Assembly (NCBI GenBank): GCA_044892525.1
Contig: CM097887.1
Coordinates: forward strand, 18,786,001-18,850,000
Source of the DNA: Schmidtea polychroa
Taxonomy: Eukaryota
Direction: 5' to 3'
DNA: 64,000 nt
Both the position numbers and the translations under genes were made by a program. Shown here piece after piece: positions 7,435 to 24,702 of this stretch (positions are counted from its first letter, which is position 1; the number at the start of each line of letters is the position of its first letter). The notes beneath the pieces were generated by a model. That model did not search any database and was not told the origin of the DNA. It saw nothing but the letters and a program-made list of their open reading frames with translations.

Positions 7435-10064
7435 TAAGGTGACCAACTATACTCATTTACTTAGTTTTGTACTCTTTTCAAATCCTGTACTCTGAAAGTA
7501 CTCATTTGTATTTCTAAAACATTTTTTTAGATTATTTTATTTCAATTTTATAAATTAAATATTTAAAATTATTTTGACAGTGATTTGATTTATCATAGTT
7601 TAATTTTCATTTTACTTAAATAATATCAGATTATAATATTTATTTAAAATCAAAATAAAAAATATATTACTAATTATTTTATAATATAATTTTTAGATTA
7701 TTAATTCAAATATGAGCGATAACAAAAGAAGGACAAATTGTTTAAACGAAAATTTAAAAAAAGTTTCCATTCATTGTAGTTAAAAATTGAAATGATGACT
7801 CCTTGATTAAATGCACAATTTGCAATAGAGAATTTTCAAATGCAATTCATTAACGTAGTGCAATTACGGCAAACATTGAAACTAAAGTACATAAAACGTC
7901 TCATGAAACAGCAGCGTCAACATCCAAACTGACAACATTTTTTAAAGGGAATGCTTTTGGAACTAGTGAAAAAATTTGGCAGTTATGAAGGGTACTTTCG
8001 CTTTTCACACAATAATCCATAATCAAAGTTTTCGCAGCATGGACTGTACTAATAAATTATTAAAAAAATTTTGTGACGAAAAATTTACTTGTGCGCGAGT
8101 CTATCGTAACCAGCGTATTTAATGAATACTGCAAGAAAATGCTATCAGAAAATCTGGATTCTGTATCTCATATATATATATATATATATACAAATTCATA
8201 CATATGTATATATCAATATAAAGATAGAAAGTTTATAAAATATTTAATTTACTTGATAAAAAAAGCAGAACTATTTGGCGCCCGCTTCTAAATCGGCGCC
8301 CTAGGCTGCTGCCGACGTCGCCTATGCCTAAAACCGGGCCTGTATATATATATATATATAATTTTCATATATATATATAACACTGAAATAAAACTTTATC
8401 CGATTTTAGTAAGGTATTACAATATTAAGAACGGTATTCAAATTAAGATTTTAAATTTGGAATCAATCGAAGAGGAAACATCAGACATTTTGTCTAATCA
8501 CTTATTTCGAGTTATAACAGACAACAATTCGAATAAGAAAATTTGGCGCTCTCGGCTGATAACACAAATACTAATTTTGGAGGACGCACCCGTAAATAAT
8601 GTGTACACAAAATTACAAGATCTTCTGAAATGAAATATTTTGGTAATTGGTTGTAATGCTCACATTATATCAAATGCCATCAATATAGCATCAAGTTCCA
8701 TGTCAATAGATGTGGAAGTAATTATTACAAATATATATTTATATTTCAATAGGTTTACAGTACGGGTAGCAAGTTTGGAAGAATTTTGTGAAAAGGCTGG
8801 TGTTCAATACAAAAAACTGCTTGGTTATTCCAAAGTCAGATGGCTTGCTTTAACTAAAGAATTTGAACGCGTTTTGCAATTATATGATCTACTACGTTCA
8901 TATTTTTTAAGCCTTGACAAATGTCCTACCATTTTGAAGAAATTCTTTCAAAACGATATGTCGGAACCTATGCTTTATTTTATTCACAGTCAGGCGTCGT
9001 TGTTTCATAAAATTACTCTACAAATTGAAGGAGATAAAATTTCAGCAGCAGAAGTTTGTATTATATGAGGAAGTTAAAAGATTCTTAAAGATTAATAAGA
9101 AATTTGGTAAAAATTTTAAAAATATTTTTATTGAAAAATATTTTAAAAAGAAGAAATTTATCAAAGAAATATTTTAAGAAAATCTGAAATTTGTTTAAAT
9201 AACAAAAATAAGAACAGACAAGTTTTTTGAGATATCTTTTATTAAATAAAATTTTATGGAATTATTTAGTGATTCAAAAACGGATGAGAATCCTAATATA
9301 TTATATTAAACGATTTCATACTGCGATGTAAATCAAGATTTAATGATGGGTTTTTACCACTAATTCTAAAGAATAAACTGACCGTTTTTGGAAGATTCCA
9401 ATCTCAGAATAAAAAATGAATTTTTAAATGAAGTTAAAAATTTAATAAAATTTGCTATGAATATATCGAAGAATGGATAGTGAACTTTAGAGCATTTAAT
9501 TGTTTTAAATGGACCCTTCTAAATAGTAAAATTGAATGGAAAGAAGTTTCTTCGGCAGTCGAATTTGTTATGAAGGAAGTAAAAGATATTGTTATTAATG
9601 ACAATTTTCTCTTTGAAGAAATTCGAAGAGTAAATTTATATTTAAATGAAGAAAAATATAAGAACTGGAACGATGAGAAAATAGAACTTGACAAAAGATG
9701 GGTAGAAATCTTAGAGTATAAGAGATCCCACATGAATATTTAAAAGTTTTAATAGAAATTTCCTTATGTTGCCCAGGCACTAATGCTGCTGTTGAAAGGG
9801 TATTTTAACTAGGAATGATTATTGGAGCTGTGAGAAGTCGCAACTTTCTGTAAAAACATTATCTGCCGTCTTAACGGTCAAATTTAATATGCAAAATGAA
9901 AGTTGTTCGGATGTGGCTACATTATCCTCATTTAGTAAAAAAATTCACTCCGAAGAAAAATGTTTTTAAAAGAAAATAAAGTTTTTATCCTTTTTTCTTT
10001 TTTTTCACCTATGAAATAATTGCAAAGTGTACTCTGTTTGAACAAAAAATAGCTGGTCACCTTA
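7435..10064 (+). mobile_element. Blackjack-type hAT element with degenerate transposase
   Basis: TIRs TAAGGTGACCA(A/G)CTAT / ATAGCTGGTCACCTTA in TA-repeat flanks. Transposase fragments include SADNTNTNFGG, GCNAHIISNA, LLGYSKVRWLAL and PGTNAAVERVF at about 7710-9960. Confidence 0.85.
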
Positions 10065-10181: not shown

Positions 10182-10760
10182 TGTTGGGCTGAATCGAAGG
10201 GTATCCAAGAAATTAGGTTAAACATAATGAAATTAAAATAAAAATGAAACAAAAAACAAATTTAAGAATAAAATAGAATAGGATATAAGAAAAATAATAA
10301 ATTAGAAAATAAGAGTTAAAACAAAAAATATAAAAATAAGGAAAATTGAAATAGGACAATAGAATGACAAAAAATAACGTAAAATGTAGTAAATAATAAA
10401 GAAATTAAAGAAAATAAATAAAAAACACAATAAAAATAAAGAAAATAGGAAAAAATAACTCAAAAACAAGAAAAATAAATTAAAGCAATAAAATTAAGCG
10501 GCACTCAATTCTGATTGGTCCGCACACATCAAAAATTAATATATAAGGAAACACAAAAATTATAAACTTACAGTTAAACAACCAACTTTACAGGTAAGAT
10601 AAATTTTAACAGTTACAGTTAAACAACCAACTTTACAGGTACACAGCAACAACGTACGAGAATCAATCTAGAAACCAGGAGATATTATCAAACAGTTAAT
10701 AATCGACGTAAATTTCGAGTAACCATTTATTCGATTCGATACCTCCCGACTCAGCCTATA
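10182..10760. mobile_element. Possible solo LTR or TIR element
   Basis: Begins TGTTGGGCTGAATCG and ends CGACTCAGCCTATA (imperfect inverted termini). It has a purine-rich interior and an internal direct repeat TTACAGTTAAACAACCAACTTTACAGGTA twice (about 10568 and 10612). Confidence 0.4.
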
Positions 10761-10929
10761 AATCTATACAAATTACTTGGTCAGGGATTTTTCGATTTAT
10801 GCTTTTATCTAAGTAATAGTAGTCATGTAATTTTATGAAATAATTATAAATTTAACTGAAAATAGTTTCCTTTTCGTTTGATTCCTAATGATAAATTTGC
10901 TAATTAGATGATTTAGTTATTCAATAAAT

Positions 10930-12266
10930 GAATTATTATGAACTTTTTATGATTGATTTTCATGCATTATTATTTAATGATTATAAATTTCCGAGAAACG
11001 TGGCGTTGAGAAACTCCATGTCATGGTATGAGGTGCCTTCGGGAGCTCGGCCGGTGGACATGGCGTTTTTCAATCACGCAGCTGATTCGGGCCGTAATGT
11101 GGGGGCTTCCTCACGGGTCCGTCGCTGAAGATGCGACTAAAATAGGTGATCAATACTGTAGAGAGATGGTAACTATCAAGCAATGGGAAGTGTAGGCATA
11201 TGAGGAAAAATCTTGTTCGAGAGTTCGCACAGTGATTGAGGGCGTCATACTATTGTCTTTATCAAATTGAAACTGGTACTATCATCTGAAGATCTATACA
11301 GGATTCTCCGTTAAATCAGTCTGGACATCATTTGTAGCATATTATCTGCGTTCATGATTCCACTCGAAATTATTCCTGAAACCTTCAGCCTAAGGATCTT
11401 CACAACTGCTACTTTCATCATCTATATCCATCACGTGCAATCAACTTTGCTGCGTCTCTCTAAAAACCTACTTGTGGTGAATTGTGACAAACAAATAGTT
11501 CTCAAAAATAATAAACCATAAAATGATAATGAATATAGTCAGGAAAAATGTATTTATAAAAACAATCAAACATGTCATTCCCTTGTATATCGAATACCAA
11601 ACGTTTGTGGCAACTGATGCAAAGTTAGGATGGGAGGTAACTGATCCGATAGACCCTCCATGGGAATAAAATCCGAGTCTTAGAGATGTCACAGAGGATG
11701 ATGGAATATCCGCATTTCGTCGAATTGTATTTCCAGCGATAGTTAATAAATTTCCAACTCGATATAGACAGTGGGCATGTTGATGATGATAAAATCCATG
11801 AGGGGAGTAGAAATTATAGCTTGAATAGTTGACCAGTTTGTCTACGAAACGGATTACATCCAGTAATAGCGGTACGCAAAAGCTACCTATGCAAAATTTC
11901 CACGAGAGATAGAAATTCAACACGGTGTAATATAACATCTGATGATTCATGCAAGCTGCCAAATAGGATAAGAGTCTCACGAAGTGAGTACCCGCACACA
12001 TGTGTAAATGCACACATTGCAAGTTCTAATAGCCAAAATCCACATGCTGGTGCTCACCAATAATAACACGGATATCACTAGCCATAATTCTAAGAGCCTA
12101 TCTTCCAGGTGATACGTTCCTTGAGATCGCATAGTCATCTAACCCGATAGTAGATAATTCACCGCGAACGGCTAACTTGAGAAAAGTCCACCGGGTGTGT
12201 CATATAAAATCTCGGCTAATTACCGAAAGCACTAGACATGAGTGATGATAACACGAGTCACCAACA
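10930..12266 (+). mobile_element. Decayed LTR-retroelement relic ending in an LTR terminus
   Basis: GC-richer block with broken reading frames, ending ...GAGTCACCAACA like the other LTR 3' ends in the window. The 5' boundary was not identified. Confidence 0.45.
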
Positions 12267-12640
12267 ACTCAATAATTAATTTTAAAATAGTAAATAAATG
12301 TGAGATTTGAAAACAAAATTATAATAAATTATAGACAATATAATCGAAAGCCTAAATAAAATACAAACAAAATGCAACTCAATTAATCCAAGTCTATTAC
12401 TGGAACTGCAAAAATTTAATATTTTTGCTTAATGATGAATTAAAACCAACTTATCTAATTATCTATAAAATCATTATAATGATTAGTTAAATTTTCACTT
12501 AGTAGTTATTTAGTTCGGGTTGAATTTTCAATGCTATTTACCCTCTTCAAGAAAAATTTCCGTCATCAATAATTCCTCTTAAACATGTAATTTTCATTTT
12601 CTTTAACAATGATGTACAACCTTCGTTAAGTAAAGCCTAA

Positions 12641-14140
12641 TGTTGTCAGTTGATTTTCTAGTGGGTAAACACCCAGAGTACGCATAGGTTGATGACATAG
12701 GAAATCCCTCTTGATAAATAATCCGTTTTTCTTTTCCTGTAAAAATGTCTAATATTGATTAACGAATGGTGGCGAAAAGTGATGATTTTCTAAATTTGAT
12801 CTACCCATTTAGTGTTATTATTCTTCTTAGCTAGCAGACATGTTACCCACTGCAAAAACCGTCCTCAGACCCTGTTTTTCTTGTTCCGACAAGAACGCGA
12901 TAATCAAGGACCTGCAGACCCAGATCGGACGGTACAAAAAGAGGATAGACGAGTTAGAGGGGACATGGTTTAGTCCCTCCCAGATGAAAGAGACCCAAAA
13001 GAAATTACACCGAAGTGAACATTGCCGGGACGCTCTAATCTCCGAGAGTCGTGCCCAAAGAAGTTTGATCAAGGAGCAGTCCGAGGCGCTGCATAAAGTG
13101 TACATCCAGGCCGCGGCAACTAGAAGGATAGTGAAAATTCCCATCGGTGAAGCCGACAATCTCTTTCCGGCCCACCATGATACTTCTGCCAAATCGTCGC
13201 TCCCTTCGAAAAAACCTTGCCGGCCGTGCGTAGAAACGCAACTCTCGCCAGAGCAACTGGAGGTGGTTTTTGTTGGAAATAGTCGGGTACTGCCTAACGT
13301 CGCCTCTACATCGGCGGTAGCCCCAAACAATTCATCGACCAACAAGCCAAAGCGTCGGCAGCTTTCAAGGGCTGAACGCAAAAGGAAACAGCGTGAGCGA
13401 ATAGCTGCGAAGCAGCCCAAGCAACTGCCGGACCTCGGGAGTAATGTCAATAACGTCCCTGCTGTAATTGACCTAACAGCAAGAACACCTGGGCGGATCA
13501 TATCTGCCGCTGGGGTGACGTGGGAGGAAAACGCCTCCGAATTCTTCAATTTGGACGAGTTACTCGCCGACTCCGAGTGGGAAAAATGAGGATTTTCCCG
13601 TGAGATGACCTCATCCGTCGGAGAGTCCTGAATCAACTAACATCGTTTCCTGTCCTTGTGTTTTCTCTTATTCTAATTCTAATGTATAAAGTACGACGCG
13701 CCTGTATTGCAATGTTTGAAATAAACAATTTTTGTCTGTATACGGGTTTTGATTTTCGTTCATAAGGGATTTAACATTGAGTGGTAAATAGCATTGAGGT
13801 TTTTGAGATTCGAGGAGTACTGTTCAATTTGCAATCCAAACCAAGGGTACGGCGACAGGGTGACAGAATGTGTAGACGTAAGTCCTTCTATCGGCAGTCA
13901 GGGTTAGGAAGTCGGGGTCTCAGTGAGGAGTAGTCCGAAGGTGGCTCACCTGCTCACTGGCACCTCGCCATCATAGCACAGTTCCAACGTGAAGCAATTC
14001 ACGGGTGCTATGTTGGAGTATAGGTTATGTACGGGCCCTGCTCGGGGTGACACAGTAATGACAGGTATAATCGTAACGGGCGTTCATCCCCTAGGCTAGA
14101 AAGTTGAACTAAGGGTGGTCAACCGTGTAGTGCCCCAACA
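12641..14140 (+). mobile_element. 5' LTR (1500 bp)
   Basis: TGTTG...CAACA termini, TATAAA at 13685 and AATAAA at 13720. It is followed after 7 nt by the PBS. Confidence 0.85.
12840..13589 (+). CDS. Intact 249-aa ORF inside LTR U3 (CxxC, coiled coil, basic NLS-like tract, VIDLT SIM-like motif, acidic/aromatic C-terminus)
   Basis: ATG-initiated open frame upstream of the LTR TATA box. Related peptide tails occur in LTRs at 3-122 and about 29360-29517. Confidence 0.7.
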   Translation: MLPTAKTVLRPCFSCSDKNAIIKDLQTQIGRYKKRIDELEGTWFSPSQMKETQKKLHRSEHCRDALISESRAQRSLIKEQSEALHKVYIQAAATRRIVKIPIGEADNLFPAHHDTSAKSSLPSKKPCRPCVETQLSPEQLEVVFVGNSRVLPNVASTSAVAPNNSSTNKPKRRQLSRAERKRKQRERIAAKQPKQLPDLGSNVNNVPAVIDLTARTPGRIISAAGVTWEENASEFFNLDELLADSEWEK

Positions 14141-14147
14141 TAATTTT

Positions 14148-14165
14148 TGGGGGCTCAGCCGGGAT
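14148..14165 (+). promoter_or_regulatory. Primer-binding site complementary to the tRNA-Pro 3' end
   Basis: TGGGGGCTCAGCCGGGAT matches the classical tRNA-Pro PBS TGGGGGCTCGTCCGGGAT at 16 of 18 positions. Confidence 0.85.
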
Positions 14166-14471
14166 CTAGATTGAAATTTCCATTGACTAGTGCGAACTTG
14201 ACTGGGATTTATTATTGAAATTTTGTCGAATAGTGTGAATTCACCGGGATTAGTGATTTTAATTAACTGGCGAATGCAAATTGACTAATGCTTATCGAAT
14301 CTTATTAGAAAATCACGATTAGAAAATAATAAAATTAAAGATATAAATAAAGTAACTTTAATAATGGAGAAATAAGATAAAAGTAAGATAAAGTATAACG
14401 ATTTAAAAGGAAAATGTTTGATGAAACAACCACTAATTAGTTATGTATGACTAAAACATTTTTTTATAGAC

Positions 14472-14957
14472 ATGAAGGAATTCGTGGACCAGATACAACA
14501 ACTAATCAACTTCATAAACATCGAGAATGACTCCTTTAAAACGCTGACACAAAAGAGAGAAAGAATTAACATCATACTACTCCAAGCAATCGGGCAAACA
14601 CCAGTCGTCCCCAACCACATGTTATTAGCCGCAGGACTAAGTCACCCAGATGGGAAGATAAACCCTGAAACCGTGTATCAATGGTATCAAGAGAGATTGA
14701 ACCACCCAGCATTAAATCTTGATTATCAACGTATAAAAGATCCATTAAGTACCATATCAGATACAATCGAGCGAAAAATACAAGAAAAACTGACCCTACT
14801 ACGAACTTGTCTTGCTTGTAAACTTCGTCCTATTCGCGTACTGTTCTTGCCGTGTGGACACCTCAGTCACTGCGAAGAATGTGTGAACAACTTAAAACGA
14901 TGCCCGATATGTAAGCATGAGATAAAAGAAACTCATATGGTTTATTATGGTGAATGA
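14472..14957 (+). CDS. 161-aa protein with C-terminal IAP/MDM2-type C3HC4 RING finger (putative E3 ligase)
   Basis: CLACKLRPIRVLFLPCGHLSHCEECVNNLKRCPICKHEI at the C-terminus. A splice-acceptor-like TTTTTTTATAG lies just before the ATG. No BIR repeat is visible. Confidence 0.9.
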   Translation: MKEFVDQIQQLINFINIENDSFKTLTQKRERINIILLQAIGQTPVVPNHMLLAAGLSHPDGKINPETVYQWYQERLNHPALNLDYQRIKDPLSTISDTIERKIQEKLTLLRTCLACKLRPIRVLFLPCGHLSHCEECVNNLKRCPICKHEIKETHMVYYGE

Positions 14958-15519
14958 ATAGTTAAAGATACAATAACATTTATGAACATTGAATTAATAC
15001 GGGCGATTGAATGAGAATAAGTGTAATTGATGTGTGAAATTTTATTAAAGCTTCAATTTTATTTTTATGACGAATAAAATTTTGTTACGAACTGAGTAAT
15101 TTATGGCTTTTAATTCTATTTTATAATTTTTTTTGAATCAAACGAAAAGAAAATCAAACTAATGTGGAATTAGTCCCAATATAGGCTGTAAGGGTACAAA
15201 CCGAGCCACCTTCGGGCGGTACGTTCTATCATACGAAAAAAACCAATTGGGAGGGGATAACCGATCAATCTAAGTAAGAAGCGTAGGGCGGGGTACCATC
15301 GCAAATGATGAAAAGTTTCTGCGGTGTGACTGATCACCATGCCAATGTGGAAATGGATCATCGCGATCGTCGTGCGTTTTGAGCAAGGGGGGAAAGGGGA
15401 AACACTCTCAAGCGGTAAAGATCAGGTCGAAAAATTAAAAGTAGAGACAGAGAAAATGATAATTCAGGGTAAAAGAGGAAAAGAGAAGTAGAAGCATGCA
15501 GAGTGAGGAATATTAAAGC

Positions 15520-15967
15520 CGAGCTGTTGAATAGTCCAGCCGGTCAAGGAAAATGAAAACTGAGCTGTGAAAAGTCCAGCCAGTTCGGAGAGATTAAGAT
15601 CGAGTTGTTGAATAGTCCAACCGATCAGAAGGAAGAAGATTGAGCTGTTGAATAGTGCCAGCCAGTCGTAAGATCGAGTTGTTGAATAGTCCAACCGATC
15701 AGAAGGAAGAAGATTGAGCTGTTGAATAGTGCCAGCCAGTCGTAAGATCGAGTTGTTGAATAGTCCAACCGATCAGAAGGAAGAAGATTGAGCTGTTGAA
15801 TAGTGCCAGCCAGTCGTAAGATCGAGTTGTTGAATAGTCCAACCGATCAGAAGGAAGAAGATTGAGCTGTTGAATAGTGCCAGCCAGTCGTAAGATCGGG
15901 TTGTTGAATAGTCCAACCGATCAGAAGGAAGAAGATTGAGCTGTTGAATAGTGCCAGCCAGTCGTAA
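15520..15967. repeat. Tandem array of five 74-bp units (40+34-bp dimer) plus diverged leading subunits
   Basis: Units start at 15601, 15675, 15749, 15823 and 15897 and are almost identical. Both subunits share the core GAG(T/C)TGTTGAATAGT(G)CCA(A/G)CC. Confidence 0.95.
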
Positions 15968-17292
15968 AGGCCTAGAAAACCAAGAGATAGCAGTTAAGCT
16001 AAAATGAGATAATATTTAAATTAATAGTGAAATGGAATATTAAAGCTAGCTAGAAACAAATTGAATGTAATTACGAAAATTTGAGTTTAGAGAGGAAATA
16101 AACGAGCTCGTGGAAAAGATGATAGGATTATAATGAAAAAAGAAGGGGAAGAAGGAAATGAATTAAAGAGATAATGGATAATAAAGAATAGGTGAAATGA
16201 TGATAATGAGTAGAAGAGGAAAGTAACTAACTAATTAAAGGGATCCCAGTGAAGTAGAGAAACTCTACGGAATAATTTTTTTGGGTAAACCGGAAAAATG
16301 CATTTTTATTGGTTCCAGAGTAGAACCGAGTGGGATAATAGTAAATATGAAAAGTAAAATAGCGGCAACAGCGCAAAAGGAATAAGAAAACGAAGGGGGG
16401 TAATAAGCAGAGACCGACAACGACCTATTTATATTATAATTGATAGCGAATAGATAATTATTACGACTTTATAGATAATTGTTACTACCCCATATAGATA
16501 ATTTAAAATCGACGAAAAATACGGGCTGATGGGAAATTATAACCCGCGGAAAGGATTTCACAAAAGATAGGGGAAGCACAAACAGAAACCTAAAAGGTGT
16601 CTGTGTTTGAATGTTGCAGAAAGAATGATGAAGTCGTGTAAGCAGATGCAACACGAGATCATTTTTTCATTTTAGATATCAAATCAAGCCAGCCAATCAA
16701 GCCAATCCAGAACCTGCACAAAAGGAATTCGAGGAAATCGACAATCGACCAAGAATAAATCCATTCAGAACCCGCACCAAGAAACCCAGCAACCGGAAGA
16801 CTCCAGAACGGAAGAAGATACAGATAGCGACATCTCCAACTTCGAACAAATCACCGATATATTCAGCCTCATAGTATTAGCAGCCATCTGCCAAGGACTA
16901 GCAAATCTCCTCAGAATCTCAGTAGCAGATTCATACAGAATACTTTTCGAAGGAAACGCAATCAGATCCGAACTCGTCCGGTTCAGTAGCCGCTAATTAC
17001 AAAGAAGCGTAAGAAAGGAATCACGGATAAACCCAATCTTAGATCGTCAAGTAAGACAAGAGACGTATTATTTTCAGGAGACGAATTACAACAACTCAAA
17101 AGAGGACGATCTATTAAACATCAAAGAGGAATATCACAAGGAGCAAGAAGAACCAACCAAACAACCGTATTTGACCAAGAAAATCTCGAATACACCCCTA
17201 GTCGATCTCAAAGCAGAGAAAGTCTGTCCGACATCACTAATAGTTTAGCAACGTCAACCGAAGAACTATCAGCCCAAAGTTTAGTCACATCA

Positions 17293-18657
17293 TTGGATAA
17301 GTTAAAAGAAACAGACGAATCTAGAACACCAATCATGACGAATGTCGTAAAAACCGACGAGTATAAAGAAAAGTTCCGAGGAGAACCGTTCAATGGAAAT
17401 GCAAACAAGTTAGCAACGTTTATAACTAATTTTGAAGTTTATATCACGGTGTGTGGATGGATACCCGAAGCAATTAGCAAAAGGATGCCGTTGTTTTTGT
17501 GCGATAGCGCATTAGAAGTATATTTAGAAGCTAAAGAGAGAGATACGAAATTAGAGAAGTGGGAAGATATCAAAACATTCTTGAAGAAAACCTTCGGAGC
17601 CAGTAAGCCAATCAACCAGGCGTTGGGCGAACTAGCAAATAGGAAACAAAGAGCGAACGAATCGATAACATTATATGCCAGTGAATTAAGAAGATTGGCG
17701 AAGAAAGCAATGAATGGGAAATTACCCGAGGAAAATCTGATTGGCTATTTCATAGAGGGATTACGCCGAGAGGAGGTAAGAGCCTCAGTAGGTTGTCAAA
17801 TGTGCAAAACGTTAGAGGAAGCCATAGACTGGGCTACAAGATGCGAGCTCCACCTTCCAGCTCAAATGAATATTATGCAAGAGGATGGGAGGATAGCGAC
17901 AGCAATAGCGAAAGCGGATAACGGAGATAACAACAATCAGGAACCGAAAATGAATCAATTTATACCAGGAGCGCATCAAATTTTCAAACCACCACAAGGA
18001 CGATCAAATGGGAATAATGGTAATCGTAACAACTTGAATAATGAGAACAATTTTAATAATCGACGAAATATGAACGATAACAAGCAGTGCCGAACATGTG
18101 GTAAACCAGGACACTGGGACAGAGATTGTTATAGAAACGCAAATTGTAATCGTTGCGGACGGCGTGGACATACGGAAAATAGATGCCAGTTGAGAGGTTG
18201 TTTTAACTGTGGTCAGCCAGGTCACATCTCCAGAGACTGCCGAGAAAGGGACCAACCACAACGACCACCACAACGAAATACTAATTACATGTCGAATCCG
18301 CAACGACAAAGCAACCCTAGTGAAGGAAAACAAATGAACGTTATGCAGGAAATCTCACAAATGAAACAGATGATGCAACAGATGATGAGACCAAGACAAG
18401 AACCAGCACCACAACAAACCCAGAATATACGTATGATGAGGAGTACCGAAAATCTCAATAGTTATGAAGTACATCAACATGTACAAGAATGGCAAAGACT
18501 ACAGGCCGAGGAAGAGAGGATAAAACAAGAACGCAACCAACAACGACAAGAACAACCATTGCGAATAAATATGATGAAGTTAGTAAATGACATGAAAAGC
18601 CAGTACTGCTACAATTACGGGAAAAACCTAAGGGTAGTACCCATGACTGAACCATAG
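17293..18657 (+). CDS. gag: Gag: retrotransposon capsid domain plus three CCHC zinc knuckles
   Basis: PFNG...FITNFE...W...L.DSALEVY...WEDIKTFLKKTF, QRANESITLYASEL and FIEGL capsid motifs. Knuckles are CRTCGKPGHWDRDC, CNRCGRRGHTENRC and CFNCGQPGHISRDC. Confidence 0.95.
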   Translation: MDKLKETDESRTPIMTNVVKTDEYKEKFRGEPFNGNANKLATFITNFEVYITVCGWIPEAISKRMPLFLCDSALEVYLEAKERDTKLEKWEDIKTFLKKTFGASKPINQALGELANRKQRANESITLYASELRRLAKKAMNGKLPEENLIGYFIEGLRREEVRASVGCQMCKTLEEAIDWATRCELHLPAQMNIMQEDGRIATAIAKADNGDNNNQEPKMNQFIPGAHQIFKPPQGRSNGNNGNRNNLNNENNFNNRRNMNDNKQCRTCGKPGHWDRDCYRNANCNRCGRRGHTENRCQLRGCFNCGQPGHISRDCRERDQPQRPPQRNTNYMSNPQRQSNPSEGKQMNVMQEISQMKQMMQQMMRPRQEPAPQQTQNIRMMRSTENLNSYEVHQHVQEWQRLQAEEERIKQERNQQRQEQPLRINMMKLVNDMKSQYCYNYGKNLRVVPMTEP

Positions 18658-19290
18658 AAGGTAAAAGAAACGACAACGGAAATGAAAACAGAGAATTCAA
18701 CCACGATCTTAAACGGGAACCAGAGAATTCAGAAAATATTCTGGAAAAAGATAAAAGATAAAATCGAAAAAGAATATAATAAAGCGAAAACCGAGACAGA
18801 AGAGGAAAATAACAAGAGCAAGGAACAAGCCAGTCAACCAAACCGCCAAATGCTACAGGAACGGGAATCTGAGGAAACAACGATATTCGAAAATAGAAAA
18901 CTAAAGAGGGTACCTAGGATGAGAAATTTGCGAATCAACATGATGAAAAGGACAAAAGGTACGTCGTCCTCAGACGAAGACTATGTGAGCAGTTTGGGTG
19001 GAGAAATACTCGAAATCGAAGAGGAAGAAGGCGAAAGCGAAATAACCAGCGGAAGTGAAGACGAGGATATAGAAATAAAGTTGAGAAAAGAGAGGGAGGA
19101 AGCGATAAAACAAGTAGCTGAAATACTCCCAGTAGTAGTGAGGAACCAAGAGTTCATCGATATAATACCATTCAGACGATTCGTGCAAAAAGTGATGAAA
19201 TTGGGAAGAAACGAGAAAGATTTAATACCAAACGAGGAAAAATCAATTATAAAAAATTATATGGAAAAAATGAAGCAGGCCGATACCACG

Positions 19291-19512
19291 CGGTATGTAA
19301 TAAAAATCGGAACGAGTAGAGGACTTGAAAGAATGTGGATTAAAAATACAGTCACCGACGAACTTTTCGATTGGATACGAGAACATTTGGGAAGTTCGAG
19401 AAAGAAAGAATATCTGTATCAATACCAAGGAGAACAGATCAAACCAGATATGCACTTAGTGGATGCACTAATATGGCCAGGAGAAACGCAAATACTGAAG
19501 TTGCACAAAGAA
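19291..19512 (+). other. Ubiquitin/SUMO-like domain 1 in polyprotein
   Basis: RYVIKIGTSRGLERMWIKNTVTDELFDWIREHLG...YLYQYQGEQIKPDMHLVDALIWPGETQILKLH follows the beta-grasp pattern. Confidence 0.5.
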
Positions 19513-19808
19513 AAACAACCAGCAAACCTGTACGATTGGGCTAAAGATGCCAAGGCGAATATGATTTTAATATCAAATTGAAGTTAGAACAAATAAAGCA
19601 ATGTACTCTGAGACGAAACCTGGACAAGCTGATCAAACAAATTCAAGAACAAGTGGAAGACAACTGGGATTTACTCATCACCAGACGAGCCCCAGCCATG
19701 TACGAACTAATGAGCCGGTTGCGAGATACAGAATTGCTCCGAATGAGTGATTGGAGAACCATAAATTTGATCCACAAATATGGAAGGTTAAAAGAAACCC
19801 AGCCGCAG

Positions 19809-20063
19809 AGGTTGGAAATAACCATATGGTTACCGAACGAAGAGAAACGACGAATAAAAATGAGCAATCAGAGTACAGTGGATGATTTGGTATCAAAGAT
19901 AAACCAAGAAATAACGGAAAAGGTACGTAGCGAAAGTAGTGATGGTATGGTGGATGATGTAGTCATGATGTACGATAAAATAATATTACGAGCGGAAGAC
20001 GACACCTCGTTGAGCGAAATGGGTATGTGGGACGATCATCAGATAATCAGGATAGTACCAATG
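19809..20063 (+). other. Ubiquitin-like domain 2 in polyprotein
   Basis: LEITIWLPNEEKRRIKMSNQSTVDDLVSKINQEI...VVMMYDKIILRAEDDTSLSEMGMWDDHQIIRIV parallels the ubiquitin pattern TIxxVKxKI...LIFxGKxLxDxxTLxDxxI. Confidence 0.65.
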
Positions 20064-20756
20064 GATGAATTTCGAACAAGAGACGTAACGTATCAAAAAG
20101 AAATACGAGACCGGATGAAAACGTTATATCAAAAATCTACAGAAATAATTGAAATTCACCAACGATGGTTAAAAGAAAAGGAACTACGAGGAAAAATCAC
20201 GAAACTAAGCACCAGATCCTGCAGACGAACCCCGTGGGAAAGAGTGTGGGATATAGAAAATAAGGAATGGGAAATCCGGAAAGGAATCTTCGTAGAAACA
20301 GACATTGGGGAGACAGAAAGTGAATCGGAGGAAGAAGAAGAGGAACCCCCAGAATATGAAGAGGAAGCAAGGGGACAGATCTCAGATGACGAAAGCGAGA
20401 CGGATGTCACGTCAGAAAGCGAAAATGAAGCGAGACATATTCATGCAATGCGGAAAAAGGAACGTGAATATGCCGATATGGACGGCGAGGAAGCGACAGA
20501 AGCAAGAGAACGAGAAGAGAAAGAAAGATATAAACAATTAGGCGATATCTTAGCAATGGGAGCGAAAAATCAAAAACGTCAGGTAGTAGCATTGGCTAAT
20601 ATCATCTTAAAGACATCAGAAAATATCCACAATCTGAGAGAAATGGCGAAAGTAATAGAGGAATACCGGCAATATAATGAATGGTATCCAGAACAGCTAG
20701 AACAAATTATTCGAAAATGGAGAAATCAAGAGTGGGCACAAGACACCCAGGAGAGG

Positions 20757-20960
20757 TATCACATCCGAATCAAGTATCCGGACAAGAGCATTGAAGAACT
20801 AGAAGTACATCCAACAACGAAAATTAGAGAATTAAAAAAGAAATTAGCATATGAAACTCCATTCCATCTGCAACTATTCGGAAAATCACTAGACGATAAT
20901 GTAGACGTCGGAATAACACCCATGAGATTAGAAGAGACTACTGTGCTAACAGTGGCGGAA
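20757..20960 (+). other. Ubiquitin-like domain 3 in polyprotein
   Basis: YHIRIKYPDKSIEELEVHPTTKIRELKKKL...LQLFGKSLDDN aligns with ubiquitin LEVEPSDTIENVKAKI...LIFAGKQLEDG. Confidence 0.7.
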
Positions 20961-21587
20961 ACGTTGGGAAAACCGTTGAAAAGGAAAAGCAAAATTAATA
21001 AACCAACAAAAGGTAGTTTGAGTACTCCAAGTCCAAACCAAGCCCCAAGTAAATCTAATGAAACTGAAGAAGTTGAAGAGATTATCCTCGAAGATAGTGA
21101 CGACGAACCAGGAGAAAGATCACCGCTATTAGTGAGATGGCCAACAGGAGCCGAAATATGGACCAACAACCAACCATCAACAAGTTATCAACAACCAACG
21201 AAACTGAACATCAAGGAAATCGTCGACAATACTACAGAAACCGAAACGGATGAACGATTCCAGAAGCAAAGAGAACCAACAAAAATAACACCGGAAGGTC
21301 AAACTGATAAAATAATAGATGAGTGGAATGAGTGGCTGAGAAATAACGATAGCTCATTACCCAGAACAGATAACGAAAGAAATCCGAATTACGAAAATAC
21401 CAGAGAAGCTGGAACGATGATGGAAAAACGGGCAAAAGGAAGACCTAAGAAACAAAGAGAGAAATCTGAGTTCAAAACCAAGGAACAAGTAAAACAAGAA
21501 CAAGGACAAGTTCGATTGGAAAAGTTAGATAAAATAGTATGGGATCTAAAAGAAGCTCAACCAACGATCGAAAGAGGAGAAAAATGA

Positions 21588-21975
21588 ATACGAGAATTGA
21601 TCAAAGATATGTTAATAATAACAAATCCACAACTTAGACGCTTGTGGCAACGGAAAGTAGCCAGTGTAGAAGCTAGACAATTATGGCACATCGTATCGGG
21701 GATAATCCCAAAGCTAATCAAAGAAAAAACGAAAACTACCAAAACGGATTGGGATGAAACCAAGAGAGTGATTGAACAGCTCACGACAAATGCAAATGAT
21801 GACGAACATCATCTAGTAGTAATCACTTAATTGATGTATAATTTGATGGGATTAGCTGCAAGGAAAATACCTAATAAACAGTTCGCAAATCACGTAGAAA
21901 TGACCGTGTCAATCATAGAAAACACTATTGAACCCCATATTATCCGTGCCGGAGGATGGAAAAGACTTATACAAA
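21588..21975 (+). other. Bcl-2-like domain (one in-frame stop)
   Basis: BH2-like IEPHIIRAGGWKRL (cf. Bcl-xL LEPWIQENGGWDTF). Helix spacing from RVIEQL to GGW is within one residue of Bcl-xL QVVNEL...GGW. The NWGR of BH1 is not conserved. Confidence 0.65.
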
Positions 21976-22081
21976 CGCCACGAAAAAATGAGCAAGAAAG
22001 GTCGATGCAAGTTAGATTGAAAAAGCTGTTAAATGAACTAGAATGGGAACTACCGATGAAAGATCCAGCAAGCAGAAAAGC

Positions 22082-22298
22082 ATCAATAAATTCGTTAGTG
22101 ATGACTATGATGATATGGATGTTGTGCACAAGTGGAGCAACGGGTTTTACCATCTACGATTGTGATAATATGATAATGAGAGATAAATACTCATTGAGAG
22201 ATATAGAAGAATGCAGACAAGCATCACCCAACAAATTGGACATAGTAAAAACAAAAGTTACCTACCATGTATATCAAGAATCAGATTTCATCACCTGA
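22082..22298 (+). other. Signal-like hydrophobic segment and start of env-like glycoprotein
   Basis: SINSLVMTMMIWMLCTSGATG followed by FTIYDCDNMIMRDKYSLRDIEEC. This YDC...SL.D..EC pattern opens env-like ORFs of several invertebrate gypsy elements. Confidence 0.55.
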
Positions 22299-23286: not shown

Positions 23287-23849
23287 TTACTCCTTAAGCG
23301 TAAGCTTATCATATAAGTAGGTTCCAACTCCTGGTCCGTTTCGACGAATATTTGTTAGATGATCAGCTATTTCTTTCATTGAATCTACTTGTTCTTCCAA
23401 AAAGTCTTCCAGGTAATCAGTCATTTGTGGATCATTGTGTGTCTCAGCTATTTTGTGCAAATTAAGCAATGACTAATACAAATTGCTCATTAAGTAAAAA
23501 ACTATAAGTGATTTTGAAGTCATACTTGATTAACTTCTTTTTCAAGAGTTAGCGCAGTCTCAAAAGCTGTTTCCGGAGTCCATTCAACAATTGAAGGTTT
23601 GGCAATATCTTTAAAAACAATTCTACCACCTCGTTTATTTTGGTATTTCATCAAATTTTCAGCATGTTCTCTTTCTTCTAGTGATTGTTTGTGAAAAAAA
23701 TGACTAAAACCTTGAAGAGCCACATCATCTCGATTAAAATAAAAACTCATAGCTTGGTACACATAACTTGCATGAAGTTCTTTGTTAATTTGTTCATTAA
23801 TACCTAGTTCAGATTCAGAGTGAAAATTCTGTCGCACTTGAGAATTCAT
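23287..23849 (-). CDS. FTH: Cytosolic H-type ferritin, 169 aa, two exons (23526-23849, 23287-23472)
   Basis: Ferroxidase residues are present (KELHASY, EEREH, LEKEVNQ, LEEQ). A 53-nt GT..AG intron at 23473-23525 joins NQ|SLLNLH in frame. No signal peptide. Confidence 0.97.
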
Positions 23850-24702
23850 GATTTATGAAATTACTTAAATTTCAACTTACAGTTGCTTAAATACTTTGTG
23901 TGTGTGTCTAAGTACTGTATGTGTGCAATGAATGTGATTGCATAATTTTCTCACACACACTTACAAAAAATCACATTGCACGTATGTAACTTAAATTTAT
24001 AAATTCTATTTGTAAAATTTAAATTTTAAGATTTTGTATTTTATTTATTTGAATTTTTTAATATCCAAATTAATGTTAACATTTTTCTAATTTATTTGAG
24101 AGAATTTGACTTAAGTAAAGCTGAAGTTGCAAAATATTAAAAATATCAAAAATATTTTATATCGGCCGAAATTATAAAAAAAATAGTCGTGAATAAATGA
24201 AAATTTATATAGCAATTATGTAATTTAAACAATACAATTTTGAAAATATTTAATATTTTTTGATTAATTTTTATAATTAGAATTTCATTATTTAATTTTG
24301 TAAGTCGTTTTTACAAATTGTAGTTGTTATGTTTACGAGAATAATCCTAGCAGTTATTTCTTTGTATACTTCAGGTCGTCCTTCGGGTATCATTCTGAAC
24401 TCTAGTTATCCTATATCACACACTATGGTAATTTATGAAACCTTATCAAGTGGTTCAATAATGTATGTGTTACTTTTCGAATGCACATCTGAACTCCATT
24501 TCAAATTTGTATGAGATTTGACCGTGTCAATTTTTCGAATAAAAGTCATTTACAAAAAGAGTTACTGTGCAATTTGTCTAGAATTCGAAATGGAAAATAA
24601 GTCAATTAAGAAAGTATTGCGTGTCTAAAAGTGTCAGAAACAGAAAAATTAGAAATATTTTGCTTTTCAATAAAATTAATTTTAAATTCTTATAAATACA
24701 TT

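Follow-up and report, generated by a model that had tools for sequence, protein, structure and literature searches.

A RING gene in the leader of Burro-type retroelements is kept under purifying selection

The leader of Burro-type LTR retroelements contains, between the primer-binding site (PBS) and gag, a gene for a small RING protein without a BIR domain, and this gene is under long-term purifying selection. Its product may be a catalytically weak RING that works through a partner.

A leader RING gene in a truncated Burro element

The gene lies in a 64,000-nt stretch of Schmidtea polychroa DNA (contig CM097887.1 of assembly GCA_044892525.1, positions 18,786,001 to 18,850,000 of the forward strand), referred to here as the window; coordinates are those of the window and features are on its plus strand unless noted. 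Judged from its sequence, the element in the window is a truncated Burro-type Ty3/gypsy LTR retroelement, so assigned because its domain layout equals the planarian Burro layout given in PMC6431247. Its 5' LTR (10182..14140; 3959 bp with TG...CA ends) is 95% identical to both LTRs of one full-length relative, which are 99.8% identical to each other; the LTR-to-LTR length in a relative is about 26.9 kb, with an LTR of 3.96 kb. Seven nucleotides past the LTR end lies a tRNA-Pro-like PBS (14148..14165), which we take to be matched to tRNA-Pro and which recurs in relatives and in other Burro families; no tRNA gene was found within the 64-kb window. The 7-nt gap (14140-14148) is preserved in relatives and exceeds the 0-3 nt that usually separate LTR and PBS.

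The leader RING ORF (14472..14957; 161 aa plus stop) starts 324 nt past the start of the PBS (14148) and 2.9 kb upstream of the gag core. Between it and gag is a 74-nt tandem repeat of variable copy number (15521..16041). Gag forms the start of the giant polyprotein (16990..18657; Retrotrans_gag with three CCHC knuckles) and is followed by a broken polyprotein remnant (18658..22293) with a ubiquitin-like part and the start of env, both from weak Pfam matches (ubiquitin, E 0.04; Monjiviricetes_fusion, E 0.0045). The window polyprotein has three in-frame stops and one frame change, and the element is truncated at 22293, where homology ends. In the full-length relative, env, PR, RT, RH, IN, ankyrin (behind the integrase) and a TRAF-type ORF were recognised in pieces. 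A frame of at least 4700 codons was open in 63 of 150 copies found by gag, and frames of 4732 codons were present. Near 21930, the window polyprotein has a stretch that resembles a BH2 motif; searches of the broken polyprotein piece against Pfam and PDB gave no Bcl-2 match.

Conservation and selection

Copies were searched by gag, not by RING, and the best-scoring 150 were taken, which biases the set to young copies. The RING ORF was listed upstream of gag in 127 of them. The other 23 were inspected individually: the ORF was present in 16, one had lost it cleanly downstream of an intact PBS, and in six the entire 5' end was missing within 5.2 kb. The possibility raised in the initial sequence-only reading, that other copies lack the RING, can be set aside, the ORF being carried by 143 of the 150 gag-found copies. 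RING and gag were 2541-3188 nt apart in 126 of 127 pairs.

The same reading had made much of the ORF being intact beside a lesioned polyprotein. The ORF is open and the polyprotein is lesioned as described, but at four lesions per 1655 codons, a frame of 161 codons would stay open with a P of about 0.68. Among the copies, the RING ORF was broken by a stop or frameshift in 8 of 143, against 4.4-13 expected from polyprotein lesions. Since openness is at chance level, it is no evidence for selection, and the argument from intactness was dropped for the window copy; the evidence is provided by dN/dS. In all 21 pairs among seven subfamily representatives, with dS up to 1.7, dN/dS was 0.07-0.22 and the upper bootstrap limits did not exceed 0.58. 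The N-terminal module (0.05-0.19) and the RING half were equally constrained. Parsimony on 50 copies counted 285 amino-acid and 387 silent changes, replacement sites being about 3.5 times as many. Leader genes of two other Burro families (families 2 and 3, see below) gave values of 0.17-0.22. Gag is under stronger constraint than the RING ORF (0.02-0.05 where computable).

The LTR-leader-RING cassette is 66-83% identical among subfamilies A, B and C1, whose gag sequences are 96-100% identical, and in 52 of 1035 pairs gag was at least 99% yet RING at most 82% identical. Such figures suggest that the LTR-leader-RING block has recombined onto a shared backbone. L087, L104 and L112 combine deeply diverged LTR-leader-RING alleles with near-identical gag backbones, which likewise suggests that cassettes are exchanged.

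Structure of the leader RING protein

The protein is predicted to consist of an N-terminal helical module (residues 1-108; 14472..14795) of five helices, the last of which enters the RING, and a C3HC4 RING (C113-C147) with a 14-residue tail that includes Y158 (14808..14954). Residues 111-153 match Pfam zf-C3HC4_3 (E 1.3e-12), and the best solved relatives are the RINGs of cIAP2, cIAP1, BIRC7, XIAP and MYLIP/IDOL. Pfam scans of the leader proteins P0001, L118 and L147 gave no BIR match; the B-IAP control scored E 8.9e-17. Pfam and solved structures thus agree with the initial proposal of an IAP-type RING at the C-terminus of a protein without a BIR. The protein shares with the IAP family a C-terminal C3HC4 RING with IAP spacing and an aromatic tail residue; because it has no BIR, its sequence does not qualify it as an IAP (BIRC) family member.

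AlphaFold gave a pLDDT of 83 for the whole protein and 90 for the N-terminal part alone. In the predicted structure, the RING and preceding helix overlay IDOL (Z 9.0, rmsd 1.2, 63 aligned) and BIRC7 (Z 8.8, rmsd 1.1, 57 aligned), so that in this model IDOL fits the fold as well as the IAPs do. The best fold match of the N-terminal module had Z 5.1 and rmsd 3.4 over 82 aligned residues; no match of this module alone rose above common helical bundles. A UBA domain, hinted at by a BLAST extension, was not supported for this module: HHalign against 34 pre-RING regions gave probabilities of 0.1-0.3%, and UBA was absent among the fold matches. A homodimer complex prediction scored 0.01, with the alignment not used and the fold uncertain, and bears on dimerisation in neither direction. 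Searches for relatives of the whole protein gave none in IMG/VR and none by a word-index protein search; exact look-up found one of six proteins, and P0002, of the family 2 type, was the sole full-length match among 1.84 billion proteins.

Residues of the RING compared with cIAP1

Positions were numbered after cIAP1 by counting on the alignment, and 73 copies of the window family were scored. A proline at the P603 position is important in RINGs. According to PMC6349121, cIAP1 docks its E2 on a core around V573 and M575 and uses R606 as linchpin (R606A is defective), and F616, in the tail of the partner subunit, works in trans, contacting the donor ubiquitin in IAP-type dimers.

All eight zinc ligands are conserved (72-73 of 73 at each position), and the I604-like and H588-like positions are mostly preserved. 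The F616 position, Y158 in the window copy, is tyrosine in 73/73 copies and in all 19 rows of alignment A2, other families included; the emphasis that had been placed on a C-terminal aromatic is borne out in the window family and two more. The E2-contact positions behave otherwise. At the V573 position there is Ala in 43 copies, Ser in 28 and another residue in two; at M575, Lys, Asn, His or Arg; at P603, Thr in 61, Ala in 11 and Pro in one, the window copy being alone in having this proline (residue 145); at R606, Lys in 54, Arg in 16 and Thr in three. The hydrophobic E2-binding core of an active cIAP1-type RING (V573 and M575 positions) is missing from the window family. Of 138 library RINGs, counted approximately by regular-expression parsing, 116 have I, V, M or L at the V573 position and 108 have Pro at the P603 position; lysine at the linchpin is common (30/138). 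Families 2 and 3 are without the P603-position proline and the R606-position arginine (Asp or Thr at the latter), and have preserved the tyrosine at the F616 position and an isoleucine at the V573 position. B-IAP and the host RINGs L154-L156 and L160 have kept the hydrophobic residue, the proline and the arginine. The E2-docking surface of the leader RING looks worn down.

Candidate expression signals

An AG acceptor had been proposed ahead of the ATG, and a splice-acceptor signature was present in 77/77 copies. The candidate 3' splice acceptor (14459..14469) consists of a T-run and a YAG (TAG here) two bases before the ATG. The YAG at -5..-3 and a T at -12 are invariant in 77/77 copies, in contrast to the dinucleotide separating AG from ATG, which varies; the tract is 81% pyrimidine versus 38% for the leader, and the next upstream AG is at least 18 nt away. 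Other Burro accessory ORFs often also show an AG just before the ATG.

A candidate 5' splice donor, GTAAGT (13878..13883), lies towards the 3' end of the LTR. Of the 46 family copies with enough upstream DNA, 45 have it 510 to 607 nt before the ATG, the commonest subfamily having a one-base variant, and it is also present in L126 and L147 of the third lineage; the same motifs found no donor in the B-IAP family (family 2). A short motif behind the candidate donor (13884-13900; about 5590-5610 in L118) is common to the window family (family 1) and family 2. It is conserved although family 2 has no GT there, and may be an RNA cis element. A candidate polyadenylation signal, AATAAA (15073..15078), occurs 118 nt past the stop and at +105 to +135 in 74/77 copies, which is weak support because the region is AT-rich and no shuffle control was made. 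Since the copies are related, these counts are not independent; their weight lies in conservation against flanks of 66-83% identity.

The leader contains seven upstream ATGs in the window copy and 4-9 in relatives. On these signals, the leader gene is likely to be translated from its own spliced RNA. An upstream ATG in the donor exon as an in-frame start was considered and rejected: it was in frame in 31 copies, out of frame in 25, absent in three and unscorable in 18 (n=77). No GT..AG joint ended at the acceptor among the joints listed for contigs of runs X1, X6, X7 and X8 (15/30) and of runs X1, X2, X4 and X6 (6/6); the run types were guessed, and this result has no bearing on expression.

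Leader genes in other Burro families

Family 2 was found via its BIR domain and has a TRAF ORF followed by a 392-393 aa BIR-RING ORF. In 3/3 copies inspected, a 160-aa ORF lies between the same PBS and gag. It is 26% identical to the window ORF without internal gaps, with an AG directly before its ATG and an in-frame stop upstream, and it exists in at least 150 copies. A third lineage was represented by L147, whose leader ORF is 45% identical to the window's, and by L126, where the ORF is broken. These came from a survey of one PBS variant covering 30 loci of 77 matches, four of which had a leader gene (two in family 2, two in the third lineage); none was present within 1.5 kb in the other 26. 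Across families, the leader proteins (159-161 aa) align nearly without gaps and are encoded at the same genomic position, which speaks for an old accessory gene. Leader genes occur in three Burro families and B-IAP in one; it was absent from the 3' accessory region in 4/4 window-family copies examined. The window family and family 2 both encode a TRAF-type ORF.

The phylogeny that had been suggested for the RING sets the leader RINGs apart as one clade (100/100), with B-IAP grouping with the host RINGs L154-L156. On its 63 columns it does not place this clade; with 34 of 157 rows used, an AU test of the leader clade together with B-IAP and host L154-L156 gave p 0.135. A BLAST alignment extended weakly from the leader protein into the region ahead of the B-IAP RING. 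The idea of the leader gene as a truncated B-IAP was set aside, although the AU test does not reject it: family 2 carries both, and the leader RING is for this reason a separate gene. The word RING in Burro covers three separate genes, those of the leader RING, the TRAF RING and the IAP RING. The RINGs of L154-L156, three host exons, group with the B-IAP RING at 97 SH-aLRT and are candidate sources of it.

Possible modes of action

The explanation to which we lean, tentatively, is that a spliced RNA encodes a catalytically weak RING that would partner or dampen another ligase via its conserved tail, with the helical module selecting the target. It is favoured because the dimer tail, and not the E2 surface, has been conserved over the longest time. 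In an RNA from the 5' LTR, splicing would join the donor at 13878 with the acceptor at 14469 and so remove the PBS and the seven upstream ATGs; the RNA may end near 15075, yielding a short, unpackaged mRNA. The tail tyrosine would then serve in trans a partner RING that holds the E2. MDMX acts this way for MDM2, as its weak RING partner. The benefit to the element, in cis lineages, might be control of host defence or cell survival. Because B-IAP was missing from all four window-family copies examined, an IAP encoded by the same element cannot be a required partner. Several observations count against a weak partner: the isoleucine that families 2 and 3 have in place of V573, the commonness of a linchpin lysine in library RINGs together with the 16/73 copies that have arginine, the Pro145 of the window copy, and the lack of a donor in the B-IAP family. 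The equal constraint on the RING and N-terminal halves would fit an enzyme too.

A stand-alone homodimeric E3 is plausible but less likely. Its helical module would bind a host restriction or death factor and its RING ubiquitinate it, perhaps with a non-UBE2D E2. The zinc ligands (72-73 of 73), the mostly kept I604- and H588-like positions, the invariant tail tyrosine, a fold and pre-RING helix like those of IDOL and BIRC7, and the V573-position Ile of families 2 and 3 all suit such an enzyme, and the fast turnover of leader cassettes on near-identical gag (52/1035 pairs) could reflect changing host substrates. It is at odds with Ala or Ser at the V573 position in 71/73 window-family copies, with a P603-position proline missing in 72/73 and in the other two families, and with a linchpin arginine in only 16/73, given that R606A is defective in cIAP1 (PMC6349121). 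Two E2-contact positions are thus atypical, and the decoy idea, one of two roles originally proposed, is therefore preferred to a stand-alone ligase.

A more specific combination is unlikely: a pseudo-ligase RING subunit, kept since before the families split, would insert into host RING dimers and so redirect or block them, and the gene would be swapped together with its LTR-leader, as an allelic cassette, between near-identical gag-pol backbones. If insertion into host RINGs does occur, the element would practise counter-defence as a borrowed ligase subunit and not as a Vif-like substrate adaptor.

A role outside the ubiquitin system is doubtful. Here the RING would be a zinc-stabilised dimerisation module, and the protein would target the RNA, Gag or TRAF product of the element itself, in assembly, trafficking or expression control. 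The degenerate E2 surface, an N-terminal module without a match among IAP UBAs (below 1% probability in HHalign), the position at the head of the genome preserved across families, and the TRAF-type ORF encoded by both families are compatible with it. No RNA-binding motif was seen in the leader protein, however, and the most conserved tail residue is the donor-ubiquitin contact of IAP-type dimers, although it is also at the dimer interface. Finally, the gene could be what is left of a captured IAP that has lost its BIR and is decaying, open by chance. This reading would agree with the chance-level intactness of the window copy and of young copies, with the weak BLAST extension before the B-IAP RING and with a common origin not rejected by the AU test (p 0.135), but is very improbable, being largely refuted by dN/dS far below 1 in three families and opposed by the conservation of length, start, acceptor and tail at 26% identity and by the intact B-IAP that co-exists in family 2.

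Relation to known systems

MDM2 and MDMX RINGs have C2H2C4 spacing, and the leader RING matches them only at an E of about 1e-3; the likeness to MDMX (MDM4) favoured above is one of proposed principle, a tail aromatic supplied to a partner RING, and is an analogy, not membership. The trans-acting tail of RING dimers is described in PMC6349121. With the cIAP1, cIAP2, XIAP, BIRC7 and IDOL proteins (PMC6349121), the leader protein shares RING spacing, the pre-RING helix, a tail length within one residue and the aromatic at the F616 position; unlike them, it has no BIR, CARD or FERM domain and no recognised UBA, and differs at the V573, M575, P603 and mostly the R606 positions. Baculovirus, iridovirus and giant-virus RING/IAP proteins are likewise small, have the same fold and in many cases have no BIR annotation, whereas their matches to the leader protein are confined to the RING (TMq at most 0.40).

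Like the elements studied here, Burro/GYPSM1 measures about 30 kb, with long LTRs, a giant gag-Ubl-env-PR-RT-RH-IN-ankyrin frame and accessory ORFs; its reported polyprotein is 4873 aa, against 4732 codons here (PMC6431247). The cargo named there comprises BIR, MATH, BCL2, Ubl, ankyrin, Smc and AIR1; TRAF/MATH and BIR cargo is common to both, BIR here being in family 2 and not in the four window-family copies examined, and the section on these elements, by contrast, lists no BIR-less RING as a gene of its own in the interval from PBS to gag (PMC6431247). Burro1 B-IAP (Lee et al. 2026, cited in PMC13465017) is a BIR and RING protein reported to protect planarian stem cells. It resembles the leader gene in being an element-encoded IAP-type RING, and the 392-393 aa ORF of family 2 matches its description as given there. 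It differs in lying 3' of pol behind TRAF, in having a BIR and in its canonical E2-contact residues; the leader gene forms a separate clade, has no BIR and persists in a family that lacks B-IAP. Apoptosis and ubiquitin cargo (IAP, TRAF, Bcl-2) in Burro is already published and a role of B-IAP reported. A description of the leader RING gene was not found in the literature searched; Grohme 2018, Jurka 2007 and Lee 2026 may annotate it. A term search of PMC13524379 found no mention of RING, Burro, accessory genes or splicing.

As B-IAP is reported to protect stem cells, every other Burro accessory gene is a candidate host modulator, and the leader gene is more widely kept than B-IAP, in three families versus one here. 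A decoy or partner RING, if real, would add a mode of ubiquitin-pathway control that, to our knowledge, has not been described in LTR retroelements. RNAi designs and annotations should distinguish the leader RING, TRAF RING and IAP RING of Burro.

Other observations

In the window family, a 351-aa ORF without a clear Pfam match takes the place of B-IAP at L178:1123-2175. The 26 PBS-variant loci without a leader gene (within L123-L152) represent a shorter LTR family with the same PBS and no RING ORF within 1.5 kb; L131-L135 are tandem copies about 13.55 kb apart. Just before the window LTR, broken frames (8292-9743) presumably derive from a hAT-type transposase, which they resemble. A 249-aa ORF inside the LTR (12840-13589) begins with a coiled coil and has a basic stretch; it is preceded by a pyrimidine tract and AG and has a distant homologue in the family 2 LTR. 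One kilobase beyond the truncation point, on the minus strand (about 23300-23852), is a host gene for ferritin, interrupted by a short intron.
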